Below are positions 10,140 to 31,958 of a stretch of DNA of 32,000 bases, piece after piece. The stretch lies in NCBI RefSeq assembly GCF_000025925.1, contig NC_014033.1, positions 930,001 to 962,000 on the forward strand. The letters are read 5' to 3'. Numbering within the stretch: position 1 is the stretch's first letter; every line of letters begins with the position of its first letter. The notes below the pieces were generated by a model. That model was not told the origin of the DNA and ran no database searches. It saw nothing but the letters and a program-made list of their open reading frames with translations. Source of the stretch: Xylanibacter ruminicola 23 (lineage in GTDB: Bacteria; Bacteroidota; Bacteroidia; Bacteroidales; Bacteroidaceae). Position numbers and translations under genes: made by a program.

Positions 10140-10168
10140 AATGTTTAATCTTTAATGTTTAACGTTTA

Positions 10169-11161
10169 ATGTCTAAGTTAATAGTTTCATTATCGCCACA
10201 CGCTCACAGCCGCGATTCGATCGAGCGCAACATGTACGGTGTTATCATCGCCATGATGCCTGCGCTGCTCGCTTCATTCTATTTCTTTGGCTTGGGTGCG
10301 GTTATCGTTACCGCCACCAGTGTGGCTGCCTGCTGCTTCTTTGAGTGGGCTATCTGCAAATATATTCTGAAGAGACAACAGAACACCTTGGTCGACGGAT
10401 CGGCTGTGATCACCGGTCTGCTGCTGGCGTTCAACGTGCCTTCGAACCTGCCCATCTGGATTATCCTGATTGGTGCGCTGTTTGCCATCGGCGTAGCTAA
10501 GTTTACGTTCGGTGGTTTAGGTAACAATATCTTTAACCCTGCGTTGGTGGGTCGTGCTGCCTTGCTGGTAGCTTTCCCTGCCCAGATGACCACTTGGCCT
10601 AAGATTGGACAGTGGGATACCTATCTCGATGCCGAGACAGGTGCCACACCGCTGTCGATTATCAATTCGGCCATCCGTACTGGCGATGCCTCGTTGCTCG
10701 AGCAGTTACCCTCATCATTCGACCTGTTCTTAGGTTCAAGTTCGGGTGGTGCTGGTGCCATGGGCGAGATTTGTGCCTTGGCCCTGCTGCTGGGTCTGGC
10801 CTTTATGCTCTATAACCGCATTATCACTTGGCACATTCCTGTATCCATCCTTGGTACTGCGTTTGTGTTCTCAGGTTTGTTGCATCTGGCTAATCCTGTT
10901 TATCCTGATCCATTTACCGTGCTGCTTACCGGTGGTATGATGCTGGGTGCCATCTTTATGGCAACCGATTATGTTACCAGTCCTATGACACCAAAGGGTC
11001 AGTTGATTTATGGTGTTGCCATCGGATTCCTTACTGTGGTTATCCGTAACTGGGGTGCTTATCCCGAGGGTATGTCGTTCGCCATTCTTATTATGAATGC
11101 GTTCACACCGCTCATCAACAATTATGTTAAACCAAAACGTTTCGGGGAAGTTTCGAAATAA
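10169..11161 (+). CDS. rnfD: Rnf electron transport complex subunit D
   Basis: Polytopic membrane protein with a TGAT FMN-attachment-like motif and an ATDYVTSP motif. Position in the operon fits. Confidence 0.92.
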   Translation: MSKLIVSLSPHAHSRDSIERNMYGVIIAMMPALLASFYFFGLGAVIVTATSVAACCFFEWAICKYILKRQQNTLVDGSAVITGLLLAFNVPSNLPIWIILIGALFAIGVAKFTFGGLGNNIFNPALVGRAALLVAFPAQMTTWPKIGQWDTYLDAETGATPLSIINSAIRTGDASLLEQLPSSFDLFLGSSSGGAGAMGEICALALLLGLAFMLYNRIITWHIPVSILGTAFVFSGLLHLANPVYPDPFTVLLTGGMMLGAIFMATDYVTSPMTPKGQLIYGVAIGFLTVVIRNWGAYPEGMSFAILIMNAFTPLINNYVKPKRFGEVSK

Positions 11162-18563: not shown

Positions 18564-18651
18564 CACGGTTAAAAACGCGTCAGAGGGCTTAAAAATGCCC
18601 TTAAACGCAAAAATGGTAAAATTGTATATAGTCAAATAGTAAAATAAAAAG

Positions 18652-21183
18652 ATGGATCAAACATTCGACAACGACAGAATTATTAAGATCAACATCGAAG
18701 AAGAGATGAAATCGAGCTATATCGATTACTCTATGTCAGTAATCGTGGCCCGTGCCCTTCCCGATGTTCGTGATGGCTTCAAGCCTGTTCATCGTCGTAT
18801 CCTTTACGGTATGATGAACATTAATAACGTTTCTACCCAGCCTTATAAGAAGTGTGCCCGCGTAGTAGGTGAGGTGCTTGGTAAGTACCACCCACACGGC
18901 GACTCTTCAGTATATGGTGCCCTGGTACGTATGGCCCAGGATTGGAACATGCGTTACACCTTGGTTGATGGTCAGGGTAACTTCGGTTCGGTGGATGGCG
19001 ACTCACCTGCTGCCATGCGTTACACCGAGTGCCGCCTCTCAAAGATGGGTGAGCACATTATGGACGACCTGGATAAGGAAACCGTAGATATGGCGCCTAA
19101 CTTCGACGACTCGCTCGAGGAGCCAACCGTTATGCCTACCAAGATTCCTAATCTGCTGGTTAACGGTGGTAACGGTATTGCCGTAGGTATGGCTACCAAT
19201 ATGCCTACCCACAACCTGGGCGAGGTAATCGATGGTTGCTGCGCTTATATCGACAATCCTGATATCGATACCGAAGGCCTGATGCAGTATATCCCAGGTC
19301 CCGACTTCCCAACAGGTGCTTATATCTATGGCCTGCAGGGCGTGAAGGATGCCTACGAAACAGGTCGCGGACGTATCGTAATGCGTGCCAAGGCCGAGAT
19401 TGAGAGCGGCGACACTCACGATAAGATTGTGGTAACCGAGATTCCTTACGGTGTAAACAAGGCCGACCTGGTAGCTTATATCGCCGATCTGGCTAACCAG
19501 CACAAGATCGAGGGTGTAGCTAATGTTAACGATGAGTCGGGCCGTCAGGGTATGCGTATCGTTGTGGATTGCAAGCGCGATGCCAACGCCAATGTGCTGC
19601 TCAACAAGCTGTTTAAGATGACAGCCCTTCAGAGCTCATTCTCAGTTAATAACATCGCTCTGGTAAAGGGTCGCCCACGCCTGCTTTCGCTCAAGGAGTG
19701 TGTGAAGTATTTCGTTGAGCATCGTCACGACGTAACCATCCGTCGTACCAAGTACGATCTGCGCAAGGCACAGGAGCGTGCCCACATCTTGGAGGGCTTG
19801 ATTATTGCCGTTAACAATATCGACGAGGTTGTACATATTATCCGTAACAGTAAGACTCCTACCGATGCTCAGCGTAACTTGGAGGCCCGTTTCGAACTCG
19901 ACGAGCTGCAGAGTAAGGCTATCGTCGACATGCGTCTGGCTCAGCTCACTGGTCTGCGTGTTGATCAGCTCCACCAGGAGTTCGACGACTTGCAGAAGCT
20001 TATTGCCGAGTTGCAGGAGATTCTGGATAACCCCGAGCGTTGTAAGGAGGTGATGAAGGCCGACCTGCAGGAGGTGAAGGAGAAGTATGGCGACGAGCGT
20101 CGTACCGAGATTATTCCTTTCGACCACGAGTTCAATGCCGAGGACTTCTATCCCGACGATCCAGTGGTTATCACTATCTCGCACATGGGTTACATCAAGC
20201 GCACCCCACTGTCAGAGTTCCACGAGCAGGGTCGTGGCGGTATGGGATCAAAGGCTGCCCGTCATCGCGACAACGACTTTACCGAGTATATCTATCCTGC
20301 CACCATGCACAACACGCTGCTGTTCTTCACACAGAAGGGTCGTTGCTACTGGCAGAAGTGTTACGAGATTCCTGAGGGCGATAAGAACTCAAAGGGTCGC
20401 GCTATCCAGAATATGCTGAATATCGAGCCCGATGATGCCATCAACGCCGTTCTGCGTATCAAGAACTTCAACGATACCGAGTTCCTCAACTCACACTACG
20501 TGGTATTCGCTACCAAGCAGGGTATCATCAAGAAGACCTGTCTCGAGGCTTACTCACGTCCACGTGCCAACGGTGTGATTGCTATCAACATCAACGAGGG
20601 CGACCAGGTAGTAGGCGTTCGCCTCACCAACGGTCACAACGAGCTGTTGCTGGCTAACCGTAACGGTCGTGCCGTACGTTTCGACGAGAACGATGTACGC
20701 GTCATGGGTCGTGTATCTACCGGTGTAATCGGTATGCGTCTCGACGGTGGCGACGACGAGGTTGTAGGTATGGTTTGCGTCAACGATCCTAACACCGAGA
20801 CTATCATGGTAGTTTCTGAGAACGGTTATGGTAAGCGTTCTGAGGTTGAGGATTACCGTAAGACCTCACGTGGTGCCAAGGGTGTTAAGACCCTCTCAAT
20901 CACCGAGAAGACCGGTCGCCTGGTAGCCATCAAGGTGGTAACCGACGAGAACGACCTGATGATTATTAATAAGAGTGGTGTACTGATTCGCCTGAAGGTG
21001 GCCGATGTTCGTGTCATGGGCCGTGCCACACAGGGTGTTCGTCTCATCAACCTCACCAAGAAGAACGATAGCATCGCTTCGGTATGTAAGGTAATGCACT
21101 CGCAGGCCGAGGACGAGGATATCGAGGAGGCAGAGATCGACGCTGAGGCAGCTCAGGCTCCTGAAGCTGAGAATAAGGATTAA
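18652..21183 (+). CDS. gyrA: DNA gyrase subunit A
   Basis: AAMRYTE active-site motif, QRDR segment [10 protein letters not shown]-terminal beta-pinwheel repeats and an acidic tail. 843 aa. Confidence 0.97.
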
Positions 21184-21253: not shown

Positions 21254-22468
21254 ATGAAAAAATTAATCATGATGGCATGTGTGCTGGTAGCTAGCTCTAC
21301 CGCATTTGCCGGCGACAGTGACGCTTTGAAGGCTATCCTCAAGGCAAAGACTTATGCAGAAGCTGAGACACTCGTAAAGAGCAGCCTTGGTTCTCTGGCT
21401 AACGATGCCGAGAAGGCAAAGGCCTACAACAAGCTTGTTGACCTTGCCCTGAACGACTTTAATGCTCAGAGCGCTATCCAGACCGAGAATCAGGTAAACA
21501 AGCAGATGGGTAAGGAAGAGAAGCCCGTTGATATGAAACTGATGAACGAGATGGCCTTTGCCGCTCTCGTAGCAGGTATCGAGTGCGACAAGTTCGACCA
21601 GATGCCTAACGAGAAGGGTAAGGTAGCTCCTAAGTTTGCTGCTAAGAATGCTCAGCGCCTGTGGACTGCTCCACGTAACACTCTGGTTAACGCTGGTCAG
21701 GACGCTCTTACCGCTAAGGATAACGCCTCAGCTCGTAAGTACTGGCAGCTGTTCACCGAGAGCGACGCCGCTCCTATGTTCAAGGATTGCGACCGCGAGC
21801 AGCAGAAGCCTTTCTTCGGTCAGGTAGCCCGTTTCGCTTCAATCTTCGCTTATCAGGACAAGGATATGGCTAAGGCTCTTGAGTTGGCTGATGTAGCTAT
21901 GAAGGATCCCGAGGAGTACGAGAATGCTCTCAACCTCAAGCTCGAGATTCTGGGCGACGGTCTGAAGACTAAGGACGACTCTGTTAAGTATGCTGCCAAC
22001 CTGAAGGGCATCTATGCCGAGCACAAGGTCGACGGTGTAATGGAGAAGCTGTACAACACCCTGCTGGGTCTCGGTCAGACCGACGAGGCTAACAAGATCC
22101 TCGACGACGCTCTTGCCGCTAATCCTAACAACTTTGTAGCCCTCGCCGATAAGGGTCTGGCTCTGCTCCAGGCTAACAAGGCCGAGGAGGCTGTTCCTTA
22201 CCTCCAGAAGGCATTCGAGGTTAAGCCCGACAACGCTATCATCGCTACCTACGCAGGTACAGGTTACAGCGTACAGGCTCAGAACATCGAGGATCCTGCT
22301 AAGAAGAAGGAGCTGTACAAGAAGGCTATCGAGCTGTTCGACAAGGCTAAGGAGCTCGACCCCGACATGCTGCAGGCTAAGTGGGGTTACAACCGCTACA
22401 ACGCATACTACAACTACTATGGTGCTGACGCTCCTGAGACCAAGAAGGCCGAGGAAGAGTCACGCTAA
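21254..22468 (+). CDS. Secreted tetratricopeptide-repeat protein
   Basis: Signal peptide MKKLIMMACVLVASSTAFA. Helical Ala/Lys/Glu-rich repeats with TPR-like A..Y..A..L patterns in the C-terminal half. Confidence 0.8.
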   Translation: MKKLIMMACVLVASSTAFAGDSDALKAILKAKTYAEAETLVKSSLGSLANDAEKAKAYNKLVDLALNDFNAQSAIQTENQVNKQMGKEEKPVDMKLMNEMAFAALVAGIECDKFDQMPNEKGKVAPKFAAKNAQRLWTAPRNTLVNAGQDALTAKDNASARKYWQLFTESDAAPMFKDCDREQQKPFFGQVARFASIFAYQDKDMAKALELADVAMKDPEEYENALNLKLEILGDGLKTKDDSVKYAANLKGIYAEHKVDGVMEKLYNTLLGLGQTDEANKILDDALAANPNNFVALADKGLALLQANKAEEAVPYLQKAFEVKPDNAIIATYAGTGYSVQAQNIEDPAKKKELYKKAIELFDKAKELDPDMLQAKWGYNRYNAYYNYYGADAPETKKAEEESR

Positions 22469-22578: not shown

Positions 22579-22586
22579 TACCTTTG
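22579..22586 (+). promoter_or_regulatory. -7 promoter box (TACCTTTG)
   Basis: Exact TAnnTTTG match 34 nt upstream of the ATG at 22621. Confidence 0.55.
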
Positions 22587-22620
22587 CAACAGAAACAATT
22601 TATAAGCAGAAAAAGAGTTT

Positions 22621-23091
22621 ATGGAGAACGAGAAAGGTACCAGAGATTTGTTTTTAGAGACGCTCACAAATATTGGGTGTCAGTATGAGCTTGCAGACGA
22701 AGAGGGCGATGATCGCATCTTCTTTGCCTATCAGGGCGAGCATTTCTTTGTGGAAGCCCGAAACAATTTGCGTTTTATCCAGATATACGATACGCATTGG
22801 GGACATGTAGAACTATACGATGTTGAAGAGTTTGCACGATTAAAGAAAGCTATCAATGGTGCAAACCTTAACAATACCGTTACAACGGTTTATACCATCG
22901 ACGAGGAGGCCAAGACCGTGGATGTGCATAGCAAATCTACCATTCTCTTCATTCCCCAGATTCCCGATATCGGCGACTATTTGCGCTTGGAGTTAAACGA
23001 GTTTTTTGGCGCCCATCGCTTTGTGGGTAACGAGATGGCTAAGCTGAGAGAACAAGAAGGTACCGAAAAAATCCCTCAGGCTTCGTGTTGA
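22621..23091 (+). CDS. Hypothetical protein, possibly YbjN-like
   Basis: 156-aa ORF with its own promoter box. The pattern ELADEEGDDRIFFAYQGEHFFVEA resembles YbjN-type proteins from memory; weak assignment. GC3 is lower than in the neighbouring core genes. Confidence 0.6.
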   Translation: MENEKGTRDLFLETLTNIGCQYELADEEGDDRIFFAYQGEHFFVEARNNLRFIQIYDTHWGHVELYDVEEFARLKKAINGANLNNTVTTVYTIDEEAKTVDVHSKSTILFIPQIPDIGDYLRLELNEFFGAHRFVGNEMAKLREQEGTEKIPQASC

Positions 23092-23224
23092 AACCTGAGG
23101 GTAATTGAGCCTGCTGCAGTATGCGTGGCGGGCCGCGCAAGTGCAGGTCCTTGGCTATCTACATGGCGCCCATGCCGCTCGGCTATGCCGCTTGGCTTGT
23201 CCAAGAACTTGTGGCGCTTCGGGG

Positions 23225-23326
23225 CTAAGCCCCGATGCACGATGTCGCGCCAAGGGCAGTTACAATCGCAGTTGCGATACTGGCAATCATCTGTACGATA
23301 AACTTTAATGTCTCTTTCTTTGTCAT
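23225..23326 (-). CDS. 33-aa small membrane peptide ('smalltalk'-like)
   Basis: Hand translation of the minus strand gives ATG(23326)...TAG(23225): MTKKETLKFIVQMIASIATAIVTALGATSCIGA. It has a charged N-terminus, one hydrophobic helix and a C-terminal TSC motif. It lies co-directional and just downstream of the HU-like gene. Below the ORF-track size cut-off. Confidence 0.6.
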   Translation of the reverse strand: MTKKETLKFIVQMIASIATAIVTALGATSCIGA

Positions 23327-23345
23327 AATTGTTAATGGTTATAGG

Positions 23346-23392
23346 TTAATGTTTCATGTTTAATGTTTCATGTTTAATGTTTCATGTTTAAT
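23346..23392. repeat. 14-nt tandem repeat (TTAATGTTTCATGT x 3.4)
   Basis: Exact copies at 23346-23359, 23360-23373 and 23374-23387, plus a partial copy. Located between the HU-like stop and the small ORF start. Confidence 0.9.
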
Positions 23393-23398
23393 AGGATA

Positions 23399-23422
23399 GG
23401 GTGGGGCTTGCGCCCCCAACCC
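23399..23422 (-). terminator. GC-rich hairpin immediately after the HU-like stop (possible attenuator or terminator)
   Basis: The minus strand reads GGGTTGGGGGC-GCAA-GCCCCACCC directly after the TAA stop. There is no clear U-run, so function is uncertain. Confidence 0.4.
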
Positions 23423-24022
23423 TTAGTCTCCGATAGGCTCGTGGCTTCCACCACCGCTATTGCCACCGCCGCTATTACCGCCGCCTCCGGTGTTTCCACC
23501 GCTATTGCCACCGCCGCTATTACCGCCGCCTCCGGTGTTTCCACCGGTATTGCCGCCCTGGCTGCTACCACCGCCGTTGGTGGTCTTCTCACCATCGCCG
23601 CTCAGCAGACTCTCGGCATTCACAAACTCGGCCTTCTTCAGGAACTCACGGCTCGAAATATTCATCTCCTGCTCCTGCTCAGGCATGAATCGGATGTGGA
23701 GAGCCTTCAGGTTCTTACCCACATTAAACTCCTCCTTCTTGGGAGCACCGCCGGGCTCATTTTCCAGGGTAGTGAAGAAGGTACCCAGACCGTCGATCTT
23801 CACTCGCTTGCTCTCCAGCAGCATCTCCACCAGGCAGCTACGGAACTTCTCCAGCACACCAAATACTACATCCTGCGTATAAACGCTACCGTGCTCGCTG
23901 ATGTGCTTTGCCAGCTTGCGGGTGTTCAGGGTTTCAATACTCTTGCTGTGGGCGAACCACTTGCCAAATACCTGCGACTTGTTGTTCTTGTTCTGTCGCA
24001 ACTCATAAAAAATCTTTGCCAT
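23423..24022 (-). CDS. Bacteroidales-type HU-related DNA-binding protein with a Gly/Asn/Ser-rich C-terminal tail
   Basis: The N-terminal 130 aa (MAKIFYELRQNKNNKS...GKWFAH...VKIDGLGTFF) resemble the HU-like DNA-binding proteins common in Bacteroides/Prevotella. The C-terminal 55 aa is low complexity and repeat-encoded. Confidence 0.8.
   Translation of the reverse strand: MAKIFYELRQNKNNKSQVFGKWFAHSKSIETLNTRKLAKHISEHGSVYTQDVVFGVLEKFRSCLVEMLLESKRVKIDGLGTFFTTLENEPGGAPKKEEFNVGKNLKALHIRFMPEQEQEMNISSREFLKKAEFVNAESLLSGDGEKTTNGGGSSQGGNTGGNTGGGGNSGGGNSGGNTGGGGNSGGGNSGGGSHEPIGD
23451..23557. repeat. 45-nt in-frame tandem repeat (about 2.4 copies) encoding the HU-like tail
   Basis: 23451-23495 and 23496-23540 are identical (CCACCGCTATTGCCACCGCCGCTATTACCGCCGCCTCCGGTGTTT). 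A diverged partial third copy lies at 23541-23557. Confidence 0.9.
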
Positions 24023-24117
24023 ACTCTAATACTTTTAATTTTAATGGTTAATACTAATGTTACTTAATCTCTTGTGTGTCTCAATCCACGTGTGCACTTT
24101 GTTTCTTTTTGACGATG

Positions 24118-24125
24118 CAAAGGTA
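24118..24125 (-). promoter_or_regulatory. -7 promoter box (TACCTTTG on the minus strand) for the HU-like gene
   Basis: Exact TAnnTTTG match 95 nt upstream of the minus-strand ATG at 24022. Confidence 0.55.
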
Positions 24126-24348
24126 CAAAAAAAATCGATGCAAAAAGAGTTTTTTCTCGTCTATTCTCTGATTTTTCTTGAAATGTTAAAATGTAAAGAA
24201 ATAATACAAGTGGTGAGAGGCCTTATATATACTATTAAAATAATACAGCCTTACTATCTAAGAGAAAGTTCGGCAGGATTTACAGAAATCTCGTAAACTA
24301 TCCACCAGATTCTGACGTACCACTCAAAATGCCCAGTTGGCGAGTAGG

Positions 24349-24376
24349 AATGGTACATTAGTTCATTAGTTCATTT
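24349..24376 (+). repeat. Repeat copy 1 (AATGGTACATTAGTTCATTAGTTCATTT)
   Basis: Perfect 28-nt reverse complement of 24530-24557. Also a perfect 26-nt direct match to 24742-24767. Confidence 0.95.
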
Positions 24377-24420
24377 TGTAAAGTTTAGTAGAGCATCCTT
24401 GGTCGCTTATTACCTTATAT

Positions 24421-24450
24421 AATTTATATATATTATAATATATATAAATT
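24421..24450. repeat. Perfect 30-bp A/T-only palindrome
   Basis: AATTTATATATATTATAATATATATAAATT equals its own reverse complement. It lies inside the segment bounded by repeat copies 1 and 2. Confidence 0.95.
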
Positions 24451-24529
24451 TAATATATAATATAGAATTAATAAAATCTCTACATCTTAACTTTTCTCTC
24501 GCCCTCCTGCTTATATTTCTTCGAATTGG

Positions 24530-24557
24530 AAATGAACTAATGAACTAATGTACCATT
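24530..24557 (-). repeat. Repeat copy 2 (inverted)
   Basis: AAATGAACTAATGAACTAATGTACCATT is the exact reverse complement of copy 1. Confidence 0.95.
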
Positions 24558-24741
24558 GTGGAGAGATATGTACTTTGTACTTCCCTAAAATAAGTTGAAT
24601 GGTTTTTAACTTAACCCTGCCATTGGTTGAATGCCTATTGGGTACCTAAATTCTTATCCCTGACAGAAGTTGAACAATTCTCTTTTAACCCTTGTTTTTG
24701 TTGAATAGGCTCCACGGAAAGCCGTGCTTGTATTCTAAGAG

Positions 24742-24767
24742 TGGTACATTAGTTCATTAGTTCATTT
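24742..24767 (+). repeat. Repeat copy 3 (direct relative to copy 1)
   Basis: TGGTACATTAGTTCATTAGTTCATTT is identical to 24351-24376. It is followed by a 9-nt inverted partial copy, CAAATGAAC, at 24771-24779. Confidence 0.95.
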
Positions 24768-24819
24768 GCTCAAATGAACAATGTAAAAATGAGAAAATGT
24801 AATAATTAAAAATTAGAGT

Positions 24820-25272
24820 ATGGAACAGATAGTACAGTTGAACAGTAAAGCAAACCTCTCCGAGCATTTTGTGCTCGGGGAGTTCACCAGGAGCAAGTAT
24901 CCTGAAGTGTATAACATTCCTAGTCATGAGGCGATTGCGATCCTTGCCAACCTCTGTACTTGGTTGGAGGTTTTGAGGGAAAGGGCTTCGCAACCTATCA
25001 TCATTAACTCGGGTTATCGATCACCGCAGTTAAATCGTAAGGTTGGGGGAGCACCCACCAGTAATCACTTAACGGGCTGTGCCGTAGATATACGCACCAA
25101 TGGTATGGAACAGTCAATAGAATATGCAGCCATATTGATAGCCTATGCCAATGAATCGGCACAGGACTATGACGAGCTGCTGATAGAGAAGAACCGATAT
25201 GGTGCGGTGTGGGTACACTTTGCTGTGCGACCTAAAGATAACAGAAGAAAGGTAGCATTTATACAAGCGTAG
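24820..25272 (+). CDS. Peptidase M15 (LAS-type zinc D-Ala-D-Ala carboxypeptidase / endolysin-like), no signal peptide
   Basis: SGYRSP...NHLTGCAVD gives the Hx6D zinc motif, with a distal VWVHF histidine. 150 aa. GC3 is lower than in the core genes. Confidence 0.8.
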   Translation: MEQIVQLNSKANLSEHFVLGEFTRSKYPEVYNIPSHEAIAILANLCTWLEVLRERASQPIIINSGYRSPQLNRKVGGAPTSNHLTGCAVDIRTNGMEQSIEYAAILIAYANESAQDYDELLIEKNRYGAVWVHFAVRPKDNRRKVAFIQA

Positions 25273-25285
25273 ATAAGTAACGTTA

Positions 25286-26476
25286 TCAGCACCATTCTTT
25301 TAGGGTGCTGATGACGTTGAGGATGTGATCGCGGTGGGGGATGACGCGCTCGTTGAAGAGCTGCTGGCACTGCTGGATAACAGCCTCGGGGAAGGAGTCG
25401 CTGAGGGCAAGCCAACTGTAGTTGCGGACGTTTGCCACAGCGGCTATCTGCTGCTTGCGAAGGGCAATGATGTCAGCAGACTGGCCCTCGAAATAATAGT
25501 CGATAGTCAGATCGAACAACTGTTCGCCTAACTTGCGTGGCATGCCGATGACGGCCTCGTAATCGCCAACAAACAGAATCAGCGACGAATAGGCGTGTGC
25601 CAGGTCGAGCACAGGATGGCCGTAGCCTACTTCGCCCATATCGATGAGCATAAGTTCGTCGCCCTGTACCATGGCATTCTTGGCCTGCAGGTCGAGATGC
25701 AGCAAGCGATTGCCAGCGGGAACGGCGTCGAGAATCTGGAGTAACAGGTCGATGTTTTCTTGTGAAAAATACCGACGGATATGTAAAACTTGTTTGCGTT
25801 CGTGCTCGAGGGCATTGGGCACACAGCTATCGGCTGGCATCTGGATGGCGTGCAGTTGGCGGAACAGGTTGGCATACATGCGGGCATACTCGTGGATACG
25901 CTCGGGATGGTGCATAATGAGCGAACTGAGGGTGTCGGCATGGAGCAGCTCGTAAACCAGACCGTACTGCGCGCCCACCTTGACAATATCGAACGAAATG
26001 GCGGTAGGCATACCCATCACAAAGGCCTCTTTCGACATGGTAATCTCGTTGCGCACCTCGTCGATGGTGGTGCCATCGCGGAACACCTTGATGATGGTGT
26101 CGTCGTTGTAACGATAAACGGTGCCTACACCGCCCACACCGAGGATCTCACAACCCTCGATACTCATCTGGCGCAGGGCGCGTTCTACGCACATTATCTT
26201 TACAAAACCAGTCATGTTAAGCACGTCGTAAACGTCGGCATTAACCTCAACGAGTTTGAAATTCTTATATTGTTTGGTTAGCGAAAGCAGGATGCGCAAG
26301 CCCGAACTCGACACGTATTCGAGCTCTGCGGCATTAACTGTAACACTAAGGATGGGGCTTTGGGCTGATAAAAACTGATTGATTTCGGCTTGTGTCTGCA
26401 TGGCACTCGAGGTGTCGAGTCGTTCACAAAGTGTAATGATGGCGTGACCTTCGTTATTGGTAAATTGTAGCGTCAT
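25286..26476 (-). CDS. STAS domain fused to an APH/ChoK-type (eukaryotic-like fold) kinase domain
   Basis: Start trimmed to the ATG at 26476 (MTLQFTNNEGHAII), which lies 28 nt downstream of a -7 box. The N-terminal ~110 aa is STAS-like with a VSSSGLRILL motif. The C-terminal domain has a G-rich loop (GVGGVGTVY), a catalytic loop (HLDLQAKN) and IDMGE. Confidence 0.8.
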   Translation of the reverse strand: MTLQFTNNEGHAIITLCERLDTSSAMQTQAEINQFLSAQSPILSVTVNAAELEYVSSSGLRILLSLTKQYKNFKLVEVNADVYDVLNMTGFVKIMCVERALRQMSIEGCEILGVGGVGTVYRYNDDTIIKVFRDGTTIDEVRNEITMSKEAFVMGMPTAISFDIVKVGAQYGLVYELLHADTLSSLIMHHPERIHEYARMYANLFRQLHAIQMPADSCVPNALEHERKQVLHIRRYFSQENIDLLLQILDAVPAGNRLLHLDLQAKNAMVQGDELMLIDMGEVGYGHPVLDLAHAYSSLILFVGDYEAVIGMPRKLGEQLFDLTIDYYFEGQSADIIALRKQQIAAVANVRNYSWLALSDSFPEAVIQQCQQLFNERVIPHRDHILNVISTLKEWC

Positions 26477-26582: not shown

Positions 26583-28202
26583 ATGATTAACGAATATCAG
26601 ATTAGAGTAAAGCCGGAGGTAGCGGCGCAGGAGGATAGACTGAAAGCGTATCTGGGCGATGAGTATGGACTGAACCCAGGCGATATTAAGGGTGTACGCA
26701 TACTGAAACGCAGCATTGATGCGCGCCAGCGACAGATATACGTGAACCTGAAGGTGCGCACATATGTGAACGAACTGCCTACCGACGACGAATACCAGCA
26801 CACGGAATATCCAAACGTTGAGGGTAAGCCACAGGTAATAGTGGTTGGAGCAGGTCCTGGAGGACTGTTTGCTGCCCTGCGCCTGATAGAGTTGGGTTTG
26901 CGCCCGATTGTATTGGAGCGCGGTAAGAACGTGCACGACCGTAAGAAGGATTTGGCCAACATCAGCCGCACGCAGCAGGTTGACGGTGAGAGTAACTACT
27001 GCTTTGGTGAGGGTGGCGCCGGTGCCTATAGCGACGGTAAACTGTACACACGCAGCAAAAAGCGTGGTAATATCGAGAAAATTCTGAATGTGTTCTGTCA
27101 GCATGGTGCCTCGACGGCTATCCTGGCCGATGCGCATCCGCATATTGGTACCGACCGCTTGCCAAAGGTGATTGAGGCGATGCGAAATACCATCATTAAC
27201 TGCGGTGGCGAAGTGCACTTTCAGACCAAGATGACGCGACTGATTCTAGGTGACGACAATCAGGTGATAGGTGTTGAAGCTATTAGCCAACACCCAACAC
27301 CCAACACCCAACACCAATACAACGGTCCTGTCATACTTGCTACGGGACACTCGGCACGTGATGTTTACCGCTATCTGGCTGAAGCTAAGATTGAGATTGA
27401 GGCCAAGGGTATTGCGGTAGGCGTGCGACTGGAGCACCCCAGTCAGCTGATTGACCAGATACAGTATCATAATAAACAAGGTAGGGGCCGATGGTTGCCT
27501 GCTGCCGAGTACTCGATGGTGACACAGGTGGATGGGCGAGGTGTTTACTCGTTCTGCATGTGTCCCGGTGGATTCGTGATTCCTGCGGCTACCGATAAGG
27601 AGCAGATTGTGGTGAACGGTATGAGTCCTGCCAACCGAGGAACAGCCTGGAGTAACTCTGGTATGGTAGTGGAAGTGCGTCCGGAAGATCTGGAAAATGT
27701 AAAAATGGAAGAATTTAACAATGTAAAAATTGAAAATAAGGCATTACAGGTGATGGCGTTTCAGGAGCAGCTGGAGAAGATGTGCTGGCAGCAGGGCAAT
27801 ATGAAGCAGACGGCACCGGCACAGCGTATGGCCGACTTTGTGAACGGCAAGCTGAGCTACGATCTGCCAAAATCGTCGTACGCGCCAGGATTGATATCGA
27901 GTCCGCTGCACTTCTGGTTGCCTAAGATGATTTCGCACCGACTGCAGCAGGGCTTTAAGGCATTCGGAAAGAGTGCGCACGGATTCCTGACCAACGAGGC
28001 GGTGATGATTGCTGTTGAGACACGTACATCGAGTCCGGTGCGAATTGTTCGCGATAAGGAAACGCTGCAACATGTTCAGATTCAGGGACTTTTCCCATGT
28101 GGCGAAGGTGCCGGTTATGCAGGCGGTATTGTGAGCGCCGGTGTGGATGGCGAGCGCTGCGCCGAAGCTGCTGCTCAATATATTTCTAGCAACGGACAAT
28201 AG
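26583..28202 (+). CDS. NAD(P)/FAD-dependent oxidoreductase (COG2509-like uncharacterised FAD dehydrogenase)
   Basis: Rossmann dinucleotide motif VVGAGPGGLFAALRL, plus ILATGHSARD and CGEGAGYAGGIVSA motifs. 539 aa. Confidence 0.85.
   Translation: MINEYQIRVKPEVAAQEDRLKAYLGDEYGLNPGDIKGVRILKRSIDARQRQIYVNLKVRTYVNELPTDDEYQHTEYPNVEGKPQVIVVGAGPGGLFAALRLIELGLRPIVLERGKNVHDRKKDLANISRTQQVDGESNYCFGEGGAGAYSDGKLYTRSKKRGNIEKILNVFCQHGASTAILADAHPHIGTDRLPKVIEAMRNTIINCGGEVHFQTKMTRLILGDDNQVIGVEAISQHPTPNTQHQYNGPVILATGHSARDVYRYLAEAKIEIEAKGIAVGVRLEHPSQLIDQIQYHNKQGRGRWLPAAEYSMVTQVDGRGVYSFCMCPGGFVIPAATDKEQIVVNGMSPANRGTAWSNSGMVVEVRPEDLENVKMEEFNNVKIENKALQVMAFQEQLEKMCWQQGNMKQTAPAQRMADFVNGKLSYDLPKSSYAPGLISSPLHFWLPKMISHRLQQGFKAFGKSAHGFLTNEAVMIAVETRTSSPVRIVRDKETLQHVQIQGLFPCGEGAGYAGGIVSAGVDGERCAEAAAQYISSNGQ
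27287..27314. repeat. Heptanucleotide tandem repeat (CCAACAC x 4) inside the CDS
   Basis: Four exact consecutive copies, encoding part of SQHPTPNTQHQ. Confidence 0.95.
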
Positions 28203-29062: not shown

Positions 29063-31525
29063 ATGAATATTTCCTACAAATGGTTGAAGGAATACGTTGA
29101 TTTCGACCTGACTGCACAGCAGGTGGCCGATGCTCTGACATCGACAGGTTTGGAAGTCGACGCATTGGAAGAAGTACAGAGTATTAAAGGCGGTCTGAAG
29201 GGCCTGTACGTGGGTAAGGTGCTTACCTGCGAGGCTCATCCTAACTCAGACCATCTGCATGTAACAACGGTTGACCTGGGCAAGGGTGAGCCATCGCAGA
29301 TTGTGTGCGGTGCGCCTAACGTAGCCGCTGGTCAGAAGGTGATTGTGGCCGATTTGGGCTGCGTGCTTTACGATGGCGACAAGGAGTTTGTGATTAAGAA
29401 GAGCAAGCTGCGCGGCGTAGAGAGCAACGGTATGATCTGTGCCGAGGACGAGATTGGCGTAGGTACCAGTCACGACGGTATTATCGTATTGCCCGAGGAT
29501 GCTGTAGTGGGCACACCTGCTGCAGAGTACTACAACCTGGAGAGCGACTGGCTGATTGAGGTTGATATCACCGCCAACCGCGCTGATGGACTGAGCCACT
29601 GGGGTGTGGCACGCGACTTGTATGCCTGGCTGAAGAGCAATGGCTACGAGACCAAGATGCACCGTCCCGACTGCTCGAAGTTTACTGTTGACAATCACGA
29701 CCTGCCCATCGAGGTAAAAATTGAGAACACTGAGGCCTGCAAGCGCTATGCCTGCGTAAGCATCAGCGACTGTGAGGTAAAGGAGAGCCCCGACTGGCTG
29801 AAGAACAAGCTGAACACCATCGGACTGCGCCCCATCAACAATATCGTGGATATCACCAACTACGTGATGATGGCTTACGGACAGCCTCTGCACACCTTTG
29901 ATGCCGACATGGTAAAGGGTCATCAGATAGTAGTAAAGACCATGCCCGAGGGCACTCCATTCCAGACACTGGATGGCGAGGAGCACAAGCTGAGCGACCG
30001 CGATCTGGCTATCTGCAATGCCGAGGACCCCATGTGTATTGCCGGTGTATTCGGCGGTAAGGGTAGCGGTACTTACGAGACCACCAAGAACGTAGTGCTT
30101 GAGAGTGCCTACTTCCACCCAACATGGATCCGTAAGAGCGCACGCCGCCACGGACTGAGCACCGATGCCAGCTTCCGTTTTGAGCGTGGTGTTGATCCCA
30201 ATGGTACCATCTACGCCCTGCAGCAGGCTGCTATCCTGTGTAAGGAGCTGGCTGGCGGTAAGGTGAGCATGGAGATTGTGGACGTATATCCCGAGAAGAT
30301 GGAGAACGCCGTAGTAGATCTCTCATATCAGTATGTTCACGGCCTGGTTGGTAAGGAGATTCCTACCGATAAGATCAAGGCTATCTGTGAGAGTCTGGAG
30401 ATGAAGGTGCTCGAGGAGACTGCCGAGGGCCTGAAGCTGGAGATTCCTGCTTACCGTGTGGACGTTACCCGTCCTTGCGATGTAGTAGAGGATATCCTGC
30501 GTATCTACGGATATAATAATGTAGAGATTCCAACCCAGCTGAAGGGAAGCCTCGTGATTAAGGGCGATGAGGACCAGAAGCATAAGCTGGCTAACATCGT
30601 AAGCGAGCAGCTGGTAGGCGAGGGATTCAACGAAATCCTGAACAACTCGCTCACCAAGGGTGCTTACTACGAGGGGCATAATGCCTACGCTGCCGAGAAC
30701 TGCGTAAAGATTATGAATCCACTGAGTACCGACCTGAACGTGATGCGCCAGACACTGCTGTTCGGTGGACTTGAGAGCGTACAGCACAATGTGAACCGCA
30801 AGCGTGCTAACCTGCGTTTCTTCGAGTTCGGTAACGTATATACATTTGATCCCGAGAAGGCTAACCTCGACGATCCTATGCAGGCTTACAAGGAGCAGTA
30901 TCATGCTGCACTGTGGATTACAGGTAAGCGCGTAGAGGGCAGCTGGGCTCACGCTAACGAGGAGAGCAGCTTCTACGAGTTGAGCGCCTACGTTGAGAAT
31001 ATTCTGCGCCGTATCGGTGTTAAGCCCGGTATGATTGTTCGCAAGAAGAGCGAGAACGATATCTTCTCTGCCGGTCTCACCATCGAGAACCGTGGTGGTA
31101 AGAAGCTCATCGAGATGGGTATCATTACCAAGAAGCTGCTGAAGCAGTTCGGACTGGATGCACCTGTATTCTATGCCGAGCTGAACTGGACCGCGCTGAT
31201 GAAGGTGATTAAGAAGAACGAGGTACTTTACACTGAGGTGCCCAAGTTCCCAGCCGTTAGTCGCGACCTGGCCCTGTTGGTTGACAACAGCGTAGAGTTT
31301 GCCCAGATTGAGCAGATTGCCCGCGCAACAGAGAAGAAGCTGCTGAAGAAGGTTGAGTTGTTTGACGTTTACGAGGGCGACAAGCTGCCTGCTGGCAAGA
31401 AGAGCTACGCCGTGAACTTTATCCTTCAGGATGAGGAGAAGACCATGGGCGACAAACAGATCGAGGCCATCATGAACAAGCTCATCGCACAGCTGAAAAA
31501 GCAGCTGAATGCAGAACTGCGCTAA
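29063..31525 (+). CDS. pheT: Phenylalanine--tRNA ligase beta subunit
   Basis: MNISYKWLKEY N-terminus with an OB tRNA-binding domain (HPNSDHLHV...CGAPN). B3/4 and B5 domains and a C-terminal FDX-ACB domain. 820 aa. Confidence 0.95.
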   Translation: MNISYKWLKEYVDFDLTAQQVADALTSTGLEVDALEEVQSIKGGLKGLYVGKVLTCEAHPNSDHLHVTTVDLGKGEPSQIVCGAPNVAAGQKVIVADLGCVLYDGDKEFVIKKSKLRGVESNGMICAEDEIGVGTSHDGIIVLPEDAVVGTPAAEYYNLESDWLIEVDITANRADGLSHWGVARDLYAWLKSNGYETKMHRPDCSKFTVDNHDLPIEVKIENTEACKRYACVSISDCEVKESPDWLKNKLNTIGLRPINNIVDITNYVMMAYGQPLHTFDADMVKGHQIVVKTMPEGTPFQTLDGEEHKLSDRDLAICNAEDPMCIAGVFGGKGSGTYETTKNVVLESAYFHPTWIRKSARRHGLSTDASFRFERGVDPNGTIYALQQAAILCKELAGGKVSMEIVDVYPEKMENAVVDLSYQYVHGLVGKEIPTDKIKAICESLEMKVLEETAEGLKLEIPAYRVDVTRPCDVVEDILRIYGYNNVEIPTQLKGSLVIKGDEDQKHKLANIVSEQLVGEGFNEILNNSLTKGAYYEGHNAYAAENCVKIMNPLSTDLNVMRQTLLFGGLESVQHNVNRKRANLRFFEFGNVYTFDPEKANLDDPMQAYKEQYHAALWITGKRVEGSWAHANEESSFYELSAYVENILRRIGVKPGMIVRKKSENDIFSAGLTIENRGGKKLIEMGIITKKLLKQFGLDAPVFYAELNWTALMKVIKKNEVLYTEVPKFPAVSRDLALLVDNSVEFAQIEQIARATEKKLLKKVELFDVYEGDKLPAGKKSYAVNFILQDEEKTMGDKQIEAIMNKLIAQLKKQLNAELR

Positions 31526-31558
31526 TTTGACTATTTGACCATTTACTATTTGACTATT
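31524..31558. repeat. Left imperfect inverted repeat flanking the four-helix-bundle gene
   Basis: AATTTGACTATTTGACCATTTACTATTTGACTATT matches about 80% of the reverse complement of 31923-31958, by hand alignment with one indel. Confidence 0.6.
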
Positions 31559-31561
31559 GGT

Positions 31562-31927
31562 ATGACAGAGCTCGAGTTGAAAGAAAGATTCAAGAAATTC
31601 TCGATAAGGATTATCAAAATGGTCGATAGTATGCCCGATACAATTTCAGGAAGGGCAATTGGTTCGCAAGTGGTCAGATCAGGCACTTCGCCTGCAGCAA
31701 ATTATCGTGCTGCATGTTTGGGAAAGTCTGAGAAAGACTTCCTGAATAAGTTGAAGATGGTTGAGGAAGAACTTGACGAGACGAGTCATTGGTTAGAGGT
31801 GATCATGGAAACTGGAATGCTACCAGAGAATAGGGTGAAACCTCTATATACAGAATGCCTGGAACTGCTTAAGATAATTATCAGTTCAATTGTGAGTACT
31901 CGCAAGCATCTTGATTGTATTAAATAG
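31562..31927 (+). CDS. Four-helix-bundle protein (23S rRNA intervening-sequence-protein family)
   Basis: Start trimmed to the ATG at 31562 (MTELELKERFKKFSIRIIKM). The Q..RSGTS..ANYRAA and EE.DET.HWL patterns are typical of this family (TIGR02436, from memory). Low GC3. Confidence 0.8.
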   Translation: MTELELKERFKKFSIRIIKMVDSMPDTISGRAIGSQVVRSGTSPAANYRAACLGKSEKDFLNKLKMVEEELDETSHWLEVIMETGMLPENRVKPLYTECLELLKIIISSIVSTRKHLDCIK

Positions 31928-31958
31928 TAAAATTGTGAAATAGTAAAATAGTAAAATT
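31923..31958. repeat. Right imperfect inverted repeat flanking the four-helix-bundle gene
   Basis: AATAGTAAAATTGTGAAATAGTAAAATAGTAAAATT. Its reverse complement aligns to 31524-31558. Confidence 0.6.

Follow-up and report, generated by a model that had tools for sequence, protein, structure and literature searches.

A reduced HU-smalltalk module with opposed short-core arrays, possibly an orphaned origin, in Xylanibacter ruminicola 23

The DNA described here is a 32,000-nucleotide stretch of Xylanibacter ruminicola 23 (RefSeq assembly GCF_000025925.1, contig NC_014033.1, positions 930,001 to 962,000 of the forward strand), referred to below as the window. All positions are counted from its first letter. 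The element in question lies at 22,579 to 25,272 and contains a gene for an HU-related protein (HU-HIG), a gene for the 33-amino-acid smalltalk peptide, a gene for an M15 cell-wall peptidase, and a spacer with short repeat arrays. A reading made earlier from the sequence alone (the original prediction) had described these parts as an uncharacterised cassette, possibly phase-variable, for lysis, cell-wall remodelling or signalling. Every feature it described was located at the coordinates given. The cassette is real and conserved, and the interpretation placed on it is partly supported. The gene order is gyrA, a TPR protein gene and open reading frame (ORF) 156 on the plus strand, smalltalk and HU-HIG on the minus strand, the spacer, M15_3 on the plus strand, and a STAS-APH kinase gene on the minus strand. 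The genes and the features of the spacer are as follows.

18652-21183, plus strand: gyrA
21254-22468, plus strand: TPR protein gene
22579-22586, plus strand: -7 promoter box of ORF156, Bacteroidetes type (TACCTTTG)
22621-23091, plus strand: ORF156
23225-23326, minus strand: smalltalk (DUF6486), 33 amino acids
23423-24022, minus strand: HU-HIG
24023-24819: spacer between HU and M15, 797 bp
24351-24376, plus strand: HU-proximal array, cores GTACA, GTTCA and GTTCA with an 8-bp period
24415-24478, no strand: AT-only tract with palindrome, candidate DNA-unwinding element
24530-24555, minus strand: distal array, inverted relative to the proximal array
24712-24738, plus strand: remnant of a primase-helicase 3’ end, last eight codons
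24742-24767, plus strand: third array, 52 nucleotides upstream of the M15 start codon
24820-25272, plus strand: M15_3 peptidase gene

The HU protein matches PF18291 (HU-HIG) with 54.3 bits against a gathering cut-off of 26.2, and TIGR01201 (HU_rel) with 54.6 bits, which is under the 68.6 cut-off. The smalltalk peptide matches NCBIfam NF033879 (48.3 bits, cut-off 24.7) and Pfam DUF6486 (PF20096; 41.7 bits, cut-off 22.7). The M15 protein matches PF08291 (65.9 bits, cut-off 23.2) and the phrog_894 endolysin (E = 3.5e-32). The original prediction had therefore named the HU-related gene, the single-transmembrane (TM) peptide and the M15/LAS peptidase correctly, and its GC hairpin, 14-nucleotide tandem repeat, GC-rich block, perfect inverted repeats and palindrome are all present. 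Its “low-GC islet” holds for the spacer, where GC drops to 30-32% against 51-55% in the flanking genes, but the composition is not uniform and the HU gene has 52-59% GC. The same segment also contains two features that the prediction did not mention, the conserved ORF156 with its own promoter box and a terminator at 23101-23073 on the minus strand.

The spacer contains three perfect 26-nucleotide copies of TGGTACATTAGTTCATTAGTTCATTT in the arrangement > < >, found in 0 of 100 shuffles. They form perfect inverted repeats of 28 and 26 nucleotides, with 153 and 186 nucleotides between the arms. The first two arrays and the AT tract between them lie 330-530 bp upstream of HU. The AT-only palindrome at 24416-24455 has 20-nucleotide arms that are 90% complementary.

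The same architecture is present at related loci, which are labeled here with an L and a number. Eleven aligned HU upstream regions share a common plan, an AT-only tract between inverted arrays of tandem 7-9-mers, with an array sequence that is locus-specific. The AT tract is 28-66 nucleotides long and lies 240-620 nucleotides upstream of HU in almost all related loci. Arms were scored over 61 unique HU upstream regions with at most two mismatches allowed. Inverted arms of at least 16 nucleotides are present in 53 of the 61 and arms of at least 20 nucleotides in 45, enclosing segments of 100-170 nucleotides with 14-36% GC. The arms in shuffled controls reach at most 11-18 nucleotides. A genome-contig scan with CATTAGTTCATTAGTTCATT (an 8-mer tandem) used too simple a pattern and matched unrelated Sphingobacteriia and others; its loci, L008-L127, were not used.

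Each array is composed of 3-4 copies of a 5-nucleotide core with an 8-bp period. More than 15 core types were found, including GTWCA, GTTGC, CTAAC, GTAAC, ATGAC, GCCAC, CCGTT, and GTGCA. The 3-nucleotide spacers within the arrays often differ between the two arms. Because the cores are conserved while these spacers are free, the arrays fit protein-binding sites and not a base-paired stem. The lack of mirrored spacers also led to the rejection of a stem, in RNA or in DNA, as a model for the arms. HU was considered as the reader of the arrays and likewise rejected. The HU proteins of the window and L133 are 97% identical, yet their cores differ, and HU proteins 60-99% identical to that of the window pair with more than 15 core types.

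The third array sits just upstream of the hydrolase gene or just past the stop codon of a primase-helicase gene. Its core is that of the arms in the window, L135, L132, L166, L168/177, L153, L188/191, L189, and L218. It differs from the arms in L002 and L147/148/161, which look recombinant. Same-core arrays follow the primase-helicase stop codon in L003, L153, L188, L189, L218, L219, and L221. The spacer of the orthologue L220 is 85.6% identical to that of the window and colinear with it; the two loci agree fully in arms 1 and 2, and arm 3 of L220 counts four units against three in the window.

Two further kinds of repeat were observed near the arrays. A fourth array with the locus’s own core (GTGCA/GTGCG) lies right after the smalltalk terminator in L180, L188 (8697-8720), and L192, so that the HU-smalltalk unit there is bracketed by inverted arrays. 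Three imperfect 22-nucleotide direct repeats of the TTAACCCTGCCATTGGTTGAAT type, 73-77% identical, lie at 24611-24706 between arrays 2 and 3 of the window and are kept in L220.

The sequence before the third array, translated in frame, reads PRKAVLVF followed by a stop codon. The 825-amino-acid protein of L003, a paralogous locus in the same genome, ends in KKAVLVF and a stop codon, and the remnant DNA is 84% identical to positions 3915-3964 of L003. Longer primase-helicase remnants are present in L179 (154 amino acids), L002 (107), and L168 (63). The locus in the window therefore derives by deletion from a unit of primase-helicase, array and M15, and of the primase-helicase cluster only the last eight codons are left. 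A tblastn search of the spacer with cargo proteins detected no coding remnant. The deletion would leave M15 without a recognisable promoter.

M15 directly follows a protein of about 800 amino acids in L003, L138, L219, and L221-224. The N-domain of this protein is BT4734-like, divergent versions carrying a DUF3987 domain instead, and the protein is an archaeo-eukaryotic primase (AEP) fused to a helicase-like ATPase (PMC5862659). Its last approximately 60 residues contain a helix-turn-helix (HTH)-like pattern, LPEEFTxDD...AR...RL.KD..EK.GE, that differs in every array type seen, and this C-terminal tail looks in sequence like a winged helix. The same chromosomal site, with the STAS kinase gene as its right flank, is found in two states. 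The first is gyrA-TPR-ORF156-smalltalk-HU-arrays-M15. In the second, M15 comes after a primase-helicase cluster, and HU is absent within 10 kb.

The hydrolase position after the primase-helicase and array is held at three loci by other proteins, namely DUF5675 proteins in L189 (2002-2505) and L218 (72-518) and a family-less 141-amino-acid protein in L153 (1413-1838). These may be non-orthologous hydrolase replacements. A Pfam search of the cargo ORFs of L153 and L188 returned almost nothing, the single match being a WYL-WCX regulator in L188.

The M15 motif SNHLTGCAVD aligns to SRHMYGHAAD of 1LBU (SxHxxGxAxD), and the putative Zn ligands, read from the sequence, are H83, D90, and H133. No hydrophobic N-terminus was seen by eye. 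The protein is predicted to be a signal-less LAS/M15_3 peptidoglycan peptidase. Its identity to Microviridae and Bacteroides phage peptidases is 35-39%, and no phage record exceeds the upper value. The gene is intact and adjoins the STAS kinase gene in at least five strains. A motif scan found no TAnnTTTG box in the 800 nucleotides upstream of it. M15 is like the LAS/M15 phage endolysins (PHROG 894) in that it is a signal-less protein of about 150 amino acids with an SxHxxGxAxD...H zinc motif and is the last gene of a replication-gene cluster. Unlike them, it is chromosomal, occupies a fixed site beside the STAS-kinase gene in several strains, has no holin or virion genes near it, and shares no more than 39% identity. 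A 15-bp hairpin (AACGTTATCAGCACC...GGTGCTGATGACGTT) lies at 25279-25318, past the M15 stop codon and before the 3’ end of the STAS-kinase gene, which runs toward M15; the hairpin is kept in L007/L138.

On the other side of the spacer, HU-HIG and smalltalk form a tight operon and are probably co-transcribed. The features of this unit are as follows.

23073-23101, minus strand: intrinsic terminator of the HU-smalltalk transcript, a 12-bp stem then ATTTTTT
~23102-23224, minus strand: GC-rich block downstream of smalltalk
23109-23155, minus strand: conserved core of the GC-rich 3’ region, GCCAAGGACCUGCAC, a hairpin, then AUACUGCAGCAGGC
23170-23207, minus strand: double-hairpin element (TTCTTGGnnnnnCCAAGCGGCAnAGCCGAGCG) resembling a repetitive extragenic palindrome (REP)
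23332-23392, minus strand: 7/14-nucleotide tandem-repeat leader (TAAACAT/GAAACAT), abutting the smalltalk ATG
23398-23421, minus strand: GC hairpin right after the HU stop codon, no U-tract
24108-24132, minus strand: HU promoter block, -7 box TACCTTTG at 24119-24126

The transcript would start from its own promoter (-7 box 24119-24126, minus strand) and would contain, in order, HU, the hairpin, the heptamer leader, smalltalk, the structured GC-rich 3’ region, and the terminator at 23101-23073. The HU promoter block, TTTTTGTACCTTTGCA, holds the Bacteroidetes -7 box TAnnTTTG and is nearly invariant across the 11 aligned HU upstream regions. A motif scan also placed the TACCTTTGCA box ahead of gyrA, HU, ORF156, the STAS kinase gene, and further genes of the window. 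The hairpin after HU is kept in nearly all related loci read (it is missing in L002), with loops that vary. The 14-nucleotide tandem repeat of the smalltalk leader has 3.4 copies at 23346-23392 that are 100% identical, and the copy number of the leader repeat differs among loci. A/T-rich 7-8-nucleotide repeats resembling this leader precede other genes of the window.

The HU protein has a C-terminal extension, a Gly/Asn-rich tail at residues ~145-190, as in the glycine-rich-tail subclade of HU-HIG. The tail is coded by a 45-nucleotide tandem repeat at 23451-23554 with 2.3 copies that are 98% identical. Orthologues and close relatives are 174-199 amino acids long, and the number of tail repeats varies (for example, the 184-amino-acid P0121). 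HU matches a single phage record. Burroughs et al. 2017 (PMC5499826) described the HU-HIG clade as almost entirely without conserved operonic linkages. The HU protein described here shares with that clade the HU fold, the glycine-rich C-terminal tail, and many diverging paralogues per genome, but its glycine-rich subclade is tightly linked to smalltalk.

The 33 amino acids of smalltalk are MTKKETLKFIVQMIASIATAIVTALGATSC followed by IGA. The exact peptide is recorded in 384 blocks of the assembly collection. An HU-HIG-type gene lies 60-100 nucleotides upstream on the same strand in 10 of 10 displayed exact-peptide loci, which have differing chromosomal contexts. Smalltalk follows HU in ~69 of 80 rumen loci picked by HU similarity alone (tblastn), and the misses are mostly at contig ends. 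The RefSeq annotation of L227 and L228 agrees in placing smalltalk downstream of an HU-like gene. No match to smalltalk was found in plasmids.

Smalltalk is under purifying selection. The dN/dS, the ratio of nonsynonymous to synonymous substitution rates, is ~0.10 over 43 unique 33-codon coding sequences from HU-selected loci, and the peptide is therefore taken to be translated and constrained. Hardly any variation is seen in the segment TALG[AT]TSC, and S29 and C30 are invariant across the 43 genes. Bacterial lipoproteins follow a PS51257-type rule, with K/R in the first 7 residues, an uncharged stretch, then [LIVMFWSTAG]2-[LIVMFYSTAGCQ]-[AGS]-C, and the Cys at 15-35. The window peptide and all 50 unique peptides fit this form of the rule, with the Cys at position 29-30 and 1-8 residues after it. 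Since all 50 fit and few residues follow the Cys, smalltalk is read as a probable lipoprotein signal peptide that has hardly any mature part. With only three residues past the lipobox Cys, the product of the window gene would be a lipidated tetrapeptide or a released signal peptide.

The region 3’ of smalltalk is a mosaic, yet it is conserved across contexts. It is composed, in order, of a stop-codon-containing hairpin, the REP-like double hairpin, a 45-nucleotide core with an inner hairpin, and the terminator, which is kept 3’ of the GC block in L132, L133, L135, and L137. The core is present as 17 sequence variants from many loci, and its inner hairpin is either GCGYGG/CCACGC or GAGGGG/CCCCTC. 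The GC block has a folding z-score of -4.7 versus shuffled sequence. A search of Rfam gave no match at gathering thresholds or at E up to 1. The region is a candidate structured 3’ RNA, with covariation that is thin, at two compensatory pairs.

The REP-like element is placed in the loop of the 3’-core hairpin in L159, L166, and L215, and is also found in the 5’ leaders of HU (L133, L137, L166) and M15 (L166). Copies were observed in L133 (4299-4324, 8822-8846), L137 (4343-4368), L138 (7103-7128), and L166 (100-125, 565-590, 1115-1140, 1893-1918). The element is thus dispersed over 5’ leaders, 3’ regions, and the 3’-hairpin loop, and is found once apparently within an M15 coding region.

Linkage of the HU-smalltalk unit to the other genes was counted over 35 HU-smalltalk loci that are non-redundant and extend at least 4 kb upstream. 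In 13 of the 35 there is a primase-helicase, a hydrolase, or both (six with M15, two with DUF5675 in the place of the hydrolase, one with an uncharacterised protein, and four with primase-helicase only), and neither is nearby in the remaining 22. M15 follows a primase-helicase gene in loci that have no HU within 10 kb. The RefSeq order in Bacteroides finegoldii is BT4734, DUF3987, DUF4248, HU, smalltalk, and amidase, with the amidase start 4 nucleotides past smalltalk. In Prevotella nigrescens it is M15, HU, and smalltalk. In Parabacteroides distasonis it is BT4734, DUF4248, HU, and glucosaminidase, and smalltalk is not annotated. The link of HU-smalltalk to the hydrolase and primase-helicase is real but optional in this lineage.

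The co-occurrence of HU-like, smalltalk, and hydrolase genes, which the original prediction had mentioned, is borne out by these RefSeq records and by Sberro et al. (10.1101/494179), who described the uncharacterised HU/small-peptide/hydrolase neighbourhood and proposed a cross-talk role. Their small-protein family #350024 (later “smalltalk”, NF033879 / DUF6486) is likewise a 33-amino-acid TM peptide beside an HU-like protein and a cell-wall hydrolase in gut Bacteroidota, often with a VirE/DUF3987 primase-like gene near. The window differs in that the hydrolase is an M15 on the opposite strand and not a same-operon amidase, and in that the primase-helicase is deleted.

Defence-like or accessory genes were observed beside HU-smalltalk or primase-M15 units in L130, L134, L133, L138, and L222. 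They encode Cas12a, an SLFN/AlbA_2 ATPase, RhuM, a PLD nuclease, T5orf172, a ResIII helicase, an SMC-like AAA_15 protein, and an ANT/pRha antirepressor. These settings suggest that the modules occupy variable hot spots.

The reading preferred here, with a rough probability of one half, is that the islet is a reduced copy of a Bacteroidales module and that its arrays are iteron-like primase-helicase sites of an orphaned origin of the Staphylococcus aureus pathogenicity island (SaPI) type. The module would be composed of the HU-HIG and smalltalk operon, an origin-like region with the AT tract between inverted arrays, and M15 behind a third array of the same core. Fuller copies have, between the origin-like region and the hydrolase, a cluster whose last gene encodes the AEP primase-helicase, and the hydrolase directly follows this gene. 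The arrays would serve as binding sites for the C-terminal domain of the primase-helicase and the AT tract as the unwinding element. The array/AT-tract/array unit would then be a replication origin or an initiator landing pad, orphaned here.

In the SaPI origin, an AT-rich centre is flanked by two oppositely oriented sets of 5-6-nucleotide iterons. The winged helix at the C-terminus of Rep binds these iterons, and fusions of pri with rep occur (PMC9371898). It is this analogy, together with the HTH-like tail that differs per array type, that leads us to take the arrays as the tail’s likely binding sites. The likeness to the origins of SaPIs and other phage-inducible chromosomal islands includes short opposed repeats that flank an AT-rich centre (in 53 of 61 related loci here), element-specific repeats, and association with a primase-helicase, one repeat set lying right after its stop codon. 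There are also differences. The primase here is of the AEP type (BT4734-like/DUF3987) and not the SaPI Pri/Rep. The two-sided structure adjoins HU, is not downstream of rep, and persists mostly without a primase-helicase. The period is 8 bp with a 5-nucleotide core, integrase and packaging genes are absent, and replication is putative.

Several observations weigh against this reading. Good arrays are kept in the 22 of 35 HU-smalltalk loci that have no primase-helicase nearby, and the arrays are therefore maintained without an adjacently encoded initiator. Primase-helicase and M15 units without a nearby HU (L221-224, L138, L003, L219) carry the single downstream array only, and the AT tract and inverted pair are absent from their available DNA; the two-sided structure therefore belongs to the HU unit and not to the primase unit. 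A SaPI has its whole origin directly downstream of rep, and here one array only follows the primase-helicase stop codon. A SaPI element encodes the initiator that matches its origin, and eight codons of such a gene remain in the window. The array/AT-tract architecture is absent at the HU loci of B. finegoldii, P. distasonis, and P. nigrescens, the three examined. No integrase was seen, and two viral-contig scans with the primase-helicase yielded one IMG/VR contig that carries it. Mobility of the module is unproven.

The main alternative to the origin reading is that the arrays are stoperator-like transcriptional operators, without origin function, for a module-specific DNA-binding protein, either the primase-helicase tail or a small cargo protein. 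They would set HU-smalltalk expression and block read-through into the hydrolase gene. The third array lies 14-52 nucleotides upstream of the hydrolase start, right after the primase-helicase stop codon, and is a possible roadblock. Same-core arrays also lie at several module boundaries, including past the smalltalk terminator in L180, L188, and L192, and the core types co-vary within loci. We nevertheless consider operators unlikely. The proximal array is ~230 bp upstream of the HU promoter box, which is far for an operator, and most array-bearing loci have no candidate regulator nearby. The AT-only tract of 28-66 nucleotides that is always inside the inverted arrays is left unexplained.

It is comparably doubtful that the islet is a working cassette for lysis, wall remodelling, or “cross-talk”, in which the signal-less hydrolase would reach the wall with smalltalk as its membrane partner, and HU-HIG would be a regulator or architectural factor. 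HU-HIG is tied across the order to interchangeable hydrolases (amidase in B. finegoldii, M15 in P. nigrescens and the window, glucosaminidase in P. distasonis), the 4-nucleotide gap before the B. finegoldii amidase is a holin-endolysin-like spacing, and the neighbourhood is the one reported in 10.1101/494179. Purifying selection on smalltalk fits such a role, as does an M15 that is intact, with Zn ligands kept, beside the STAS kinase in at least five strains. On the other hand, M15 is near only 6 of the 35 HU-smalltalk loci, 22 have neither hydrolase nor primase-helicase, and M15 follows the primase-helicase where no HU lies within 10 kb. In the window M15 is on the opposite strand, 1.5 kb from smalltalk, and without a canonical promoter. 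Smalltalk travels with HU, its adjacency to a hydrolase is found in B. finegoldii only, and no virion or packaging genes lie within 10 kb. We know of no holin that resembles a 33-amino-acid peptide with a single TM-length segment ending in a lipobox. The earlier suggestion that smalltalk is the membrane partner of M15 is thus not upheld for this lineage, as smalltalk tracks HU.

A clearly improbable alternative is that HU-smalltalk units carry non-autonomous origin-like landing pads, each with a 5-nucleotide core fitting one of many AEP primase-helicase specificities. The units would be replicated or mobilised in trans as satellites of primase-helicase elements, or else be decoys or sensors of an invading initiator. 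In the decoy or sensor version, HU-HIG, the lipidated micro-peptide, and the cytoplasmic hydrolase may be the output, through exclusion or altruistic lysis. This would explain the perfect arrays in most loci without their own primase-helicase, the coexistence of more than 15 core types, and the variable, defence-rich settings (Cas12a, SLFN/AlbA, PLD, and T5orf172 as neighbours).

Extrusion of the inverted arrays as a cruciform or hairpin (DNA or RNA), recognised by HU-HIG through its shape for HU autoregulation, is very unlikely. HU-family proteins prefer distorted DNA, an AT-rich centre favours extrusion, and the arm sequence is free among loci while the inverted symmetry stays. However, the cores are conserved and the 3-nucleotide spacers are often non-complementary (L128, L132, L183, L189, L218), the opposite of what a stem requires, and the third array stands alone without a partner in full-length modules.

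The least probable reading is an invertible phase-variable switch, as raised in the original prediction, in which a recombinase flips the 153-nucleotide and/or 186-nucleotide segments and toggles M15 or HU expression. The spacer between the divergent genes is AT-rich and does hold three perfect repeats > < >. Invertible promoters are widespread among Bacteroidales, and Bacteroidales invertons likewise have perfect 26-28-nucleotide inverted repeats around AT-rich segments of 150-190 bp between divergent genes. Against inversion, the motif TTTGTAAA(A/G)T is on the HU-proximal side and reads away from HU in 12 of 12 informative loci (mirrored in 0), and the window is colinear with three orthologous strains (L135, L220, and L137); these assemblies give the majority orientation only and are compatible with rare inversion. 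No TAnnTTTG box is found on either strand at 24126-24820, and so none lies inside either segment. No recombinase is among the genes called within 10 kb on either side in the orthologue L220, which leaves room for one acting in trans. In full-length modules the third array is several kb from the arms, and the 3-nucleotide spacers are not mirrored between arms. Invertons therefore differ from the present locus, which has no internal promoter, no nearby recombinase, a single observed orientation, and repeats that are tandem-core arrays also occurring singly.

In a limited literature search, neither the lipobox nor the structured 3’ region nor the iteron-flanked AT tract turned up in any publication. 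To our knowledge, the deletion history of the locus is new, as are the interpretation of smalltalk through its lipobox, the conserved 3’ element, and the AT tract between iterons together with its co-varying third array.

ORF156 is a conserved gene of 156 amino acids whose last six codons overlap the HU-smalltalk terminator. The protein itself has no Pfam or NCBIfam match at E up to 0.01 and no PHROG match, and none of its 933 homologues has a Pfam domain. The homologues are mostly ~205-211 amino acids long with an N-terminal hydrophobic TM-like segment, and the window copy is a short form. The AlphaFold (AF2) model has a predicted local distance difference test (pLDDT) score of 83. A Foldseek comparison with YbjN/AmyR (6VU7, 5FR7) gives E = 2e-4, a probability of 1.0, and a TM-score of 0.56-0.63, so the modelled fold appears YbjN-like. 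ORF156 is syntenic in five strains, and nothing was seen that ties it functionally to the module. A 156-amino-acid ORF after smalltalk in L133 was considered as a relative and found to be unrelated. Tandem paralogue arrays of the ORF156 family, 30-65% identical, were observed downstream of other HU-smalltalk units (L161 9597-10929 and 14845-15267; L166 4977-5417; L156 1-294), which hints at a loose association of the family with these variable regions.

Further tandem repeats are present elsewhere in the window. A/T-rich repeats of 7-8 nucleotides with 3-5 copies lie between genes at 984-1008, 2016-2034, 10140-10176, 18610-18646, 31525-31558, and 31922-31957, with the units ATTAAAC, AATGTTT, AAAATAGT, ATTTGACT, and AAATAGTA. 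Several sit directly before the start codons of ordinary genes, gyrA included, and TAAACAT-type repeats of the same kind are present in the leaders of smalltalk and several M15 genes. They look like a genome-wide leader feature of the species. A perfect 7-nucleotide repeat, CCAACAC, with 4.1 copies at 27287-27315, lies within the gene for a DUF8436/FAD-dependent protein (26583-28202), whose orthologues are 535-558 amino acids long. A change in its copy number would shift the frame unless it came in multiples of three.

Few uncharacterised gene sets of gut and rumen Bacteroidota are as widespread as the HU/smalltalk/hydrolase/primase neighbourhood, which is often found beside capsule loci or other variable regions. 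The window supplies parts of it that can be tested, namely a peptide with Cys30 as its expected site of cleavage and lipidation, a candidate structured 3’ RNA, and a family of more than 15 short-core arrays. From the array family one would expect each core to be recognised by its own version of a diversifying primase-helicase tail. Should the arrays be origins, they would represent a new class of Bacteroidota replicons and possible vector parts. Otherwise, another explanation is needed for why orphan arrays are so strictly conserved.

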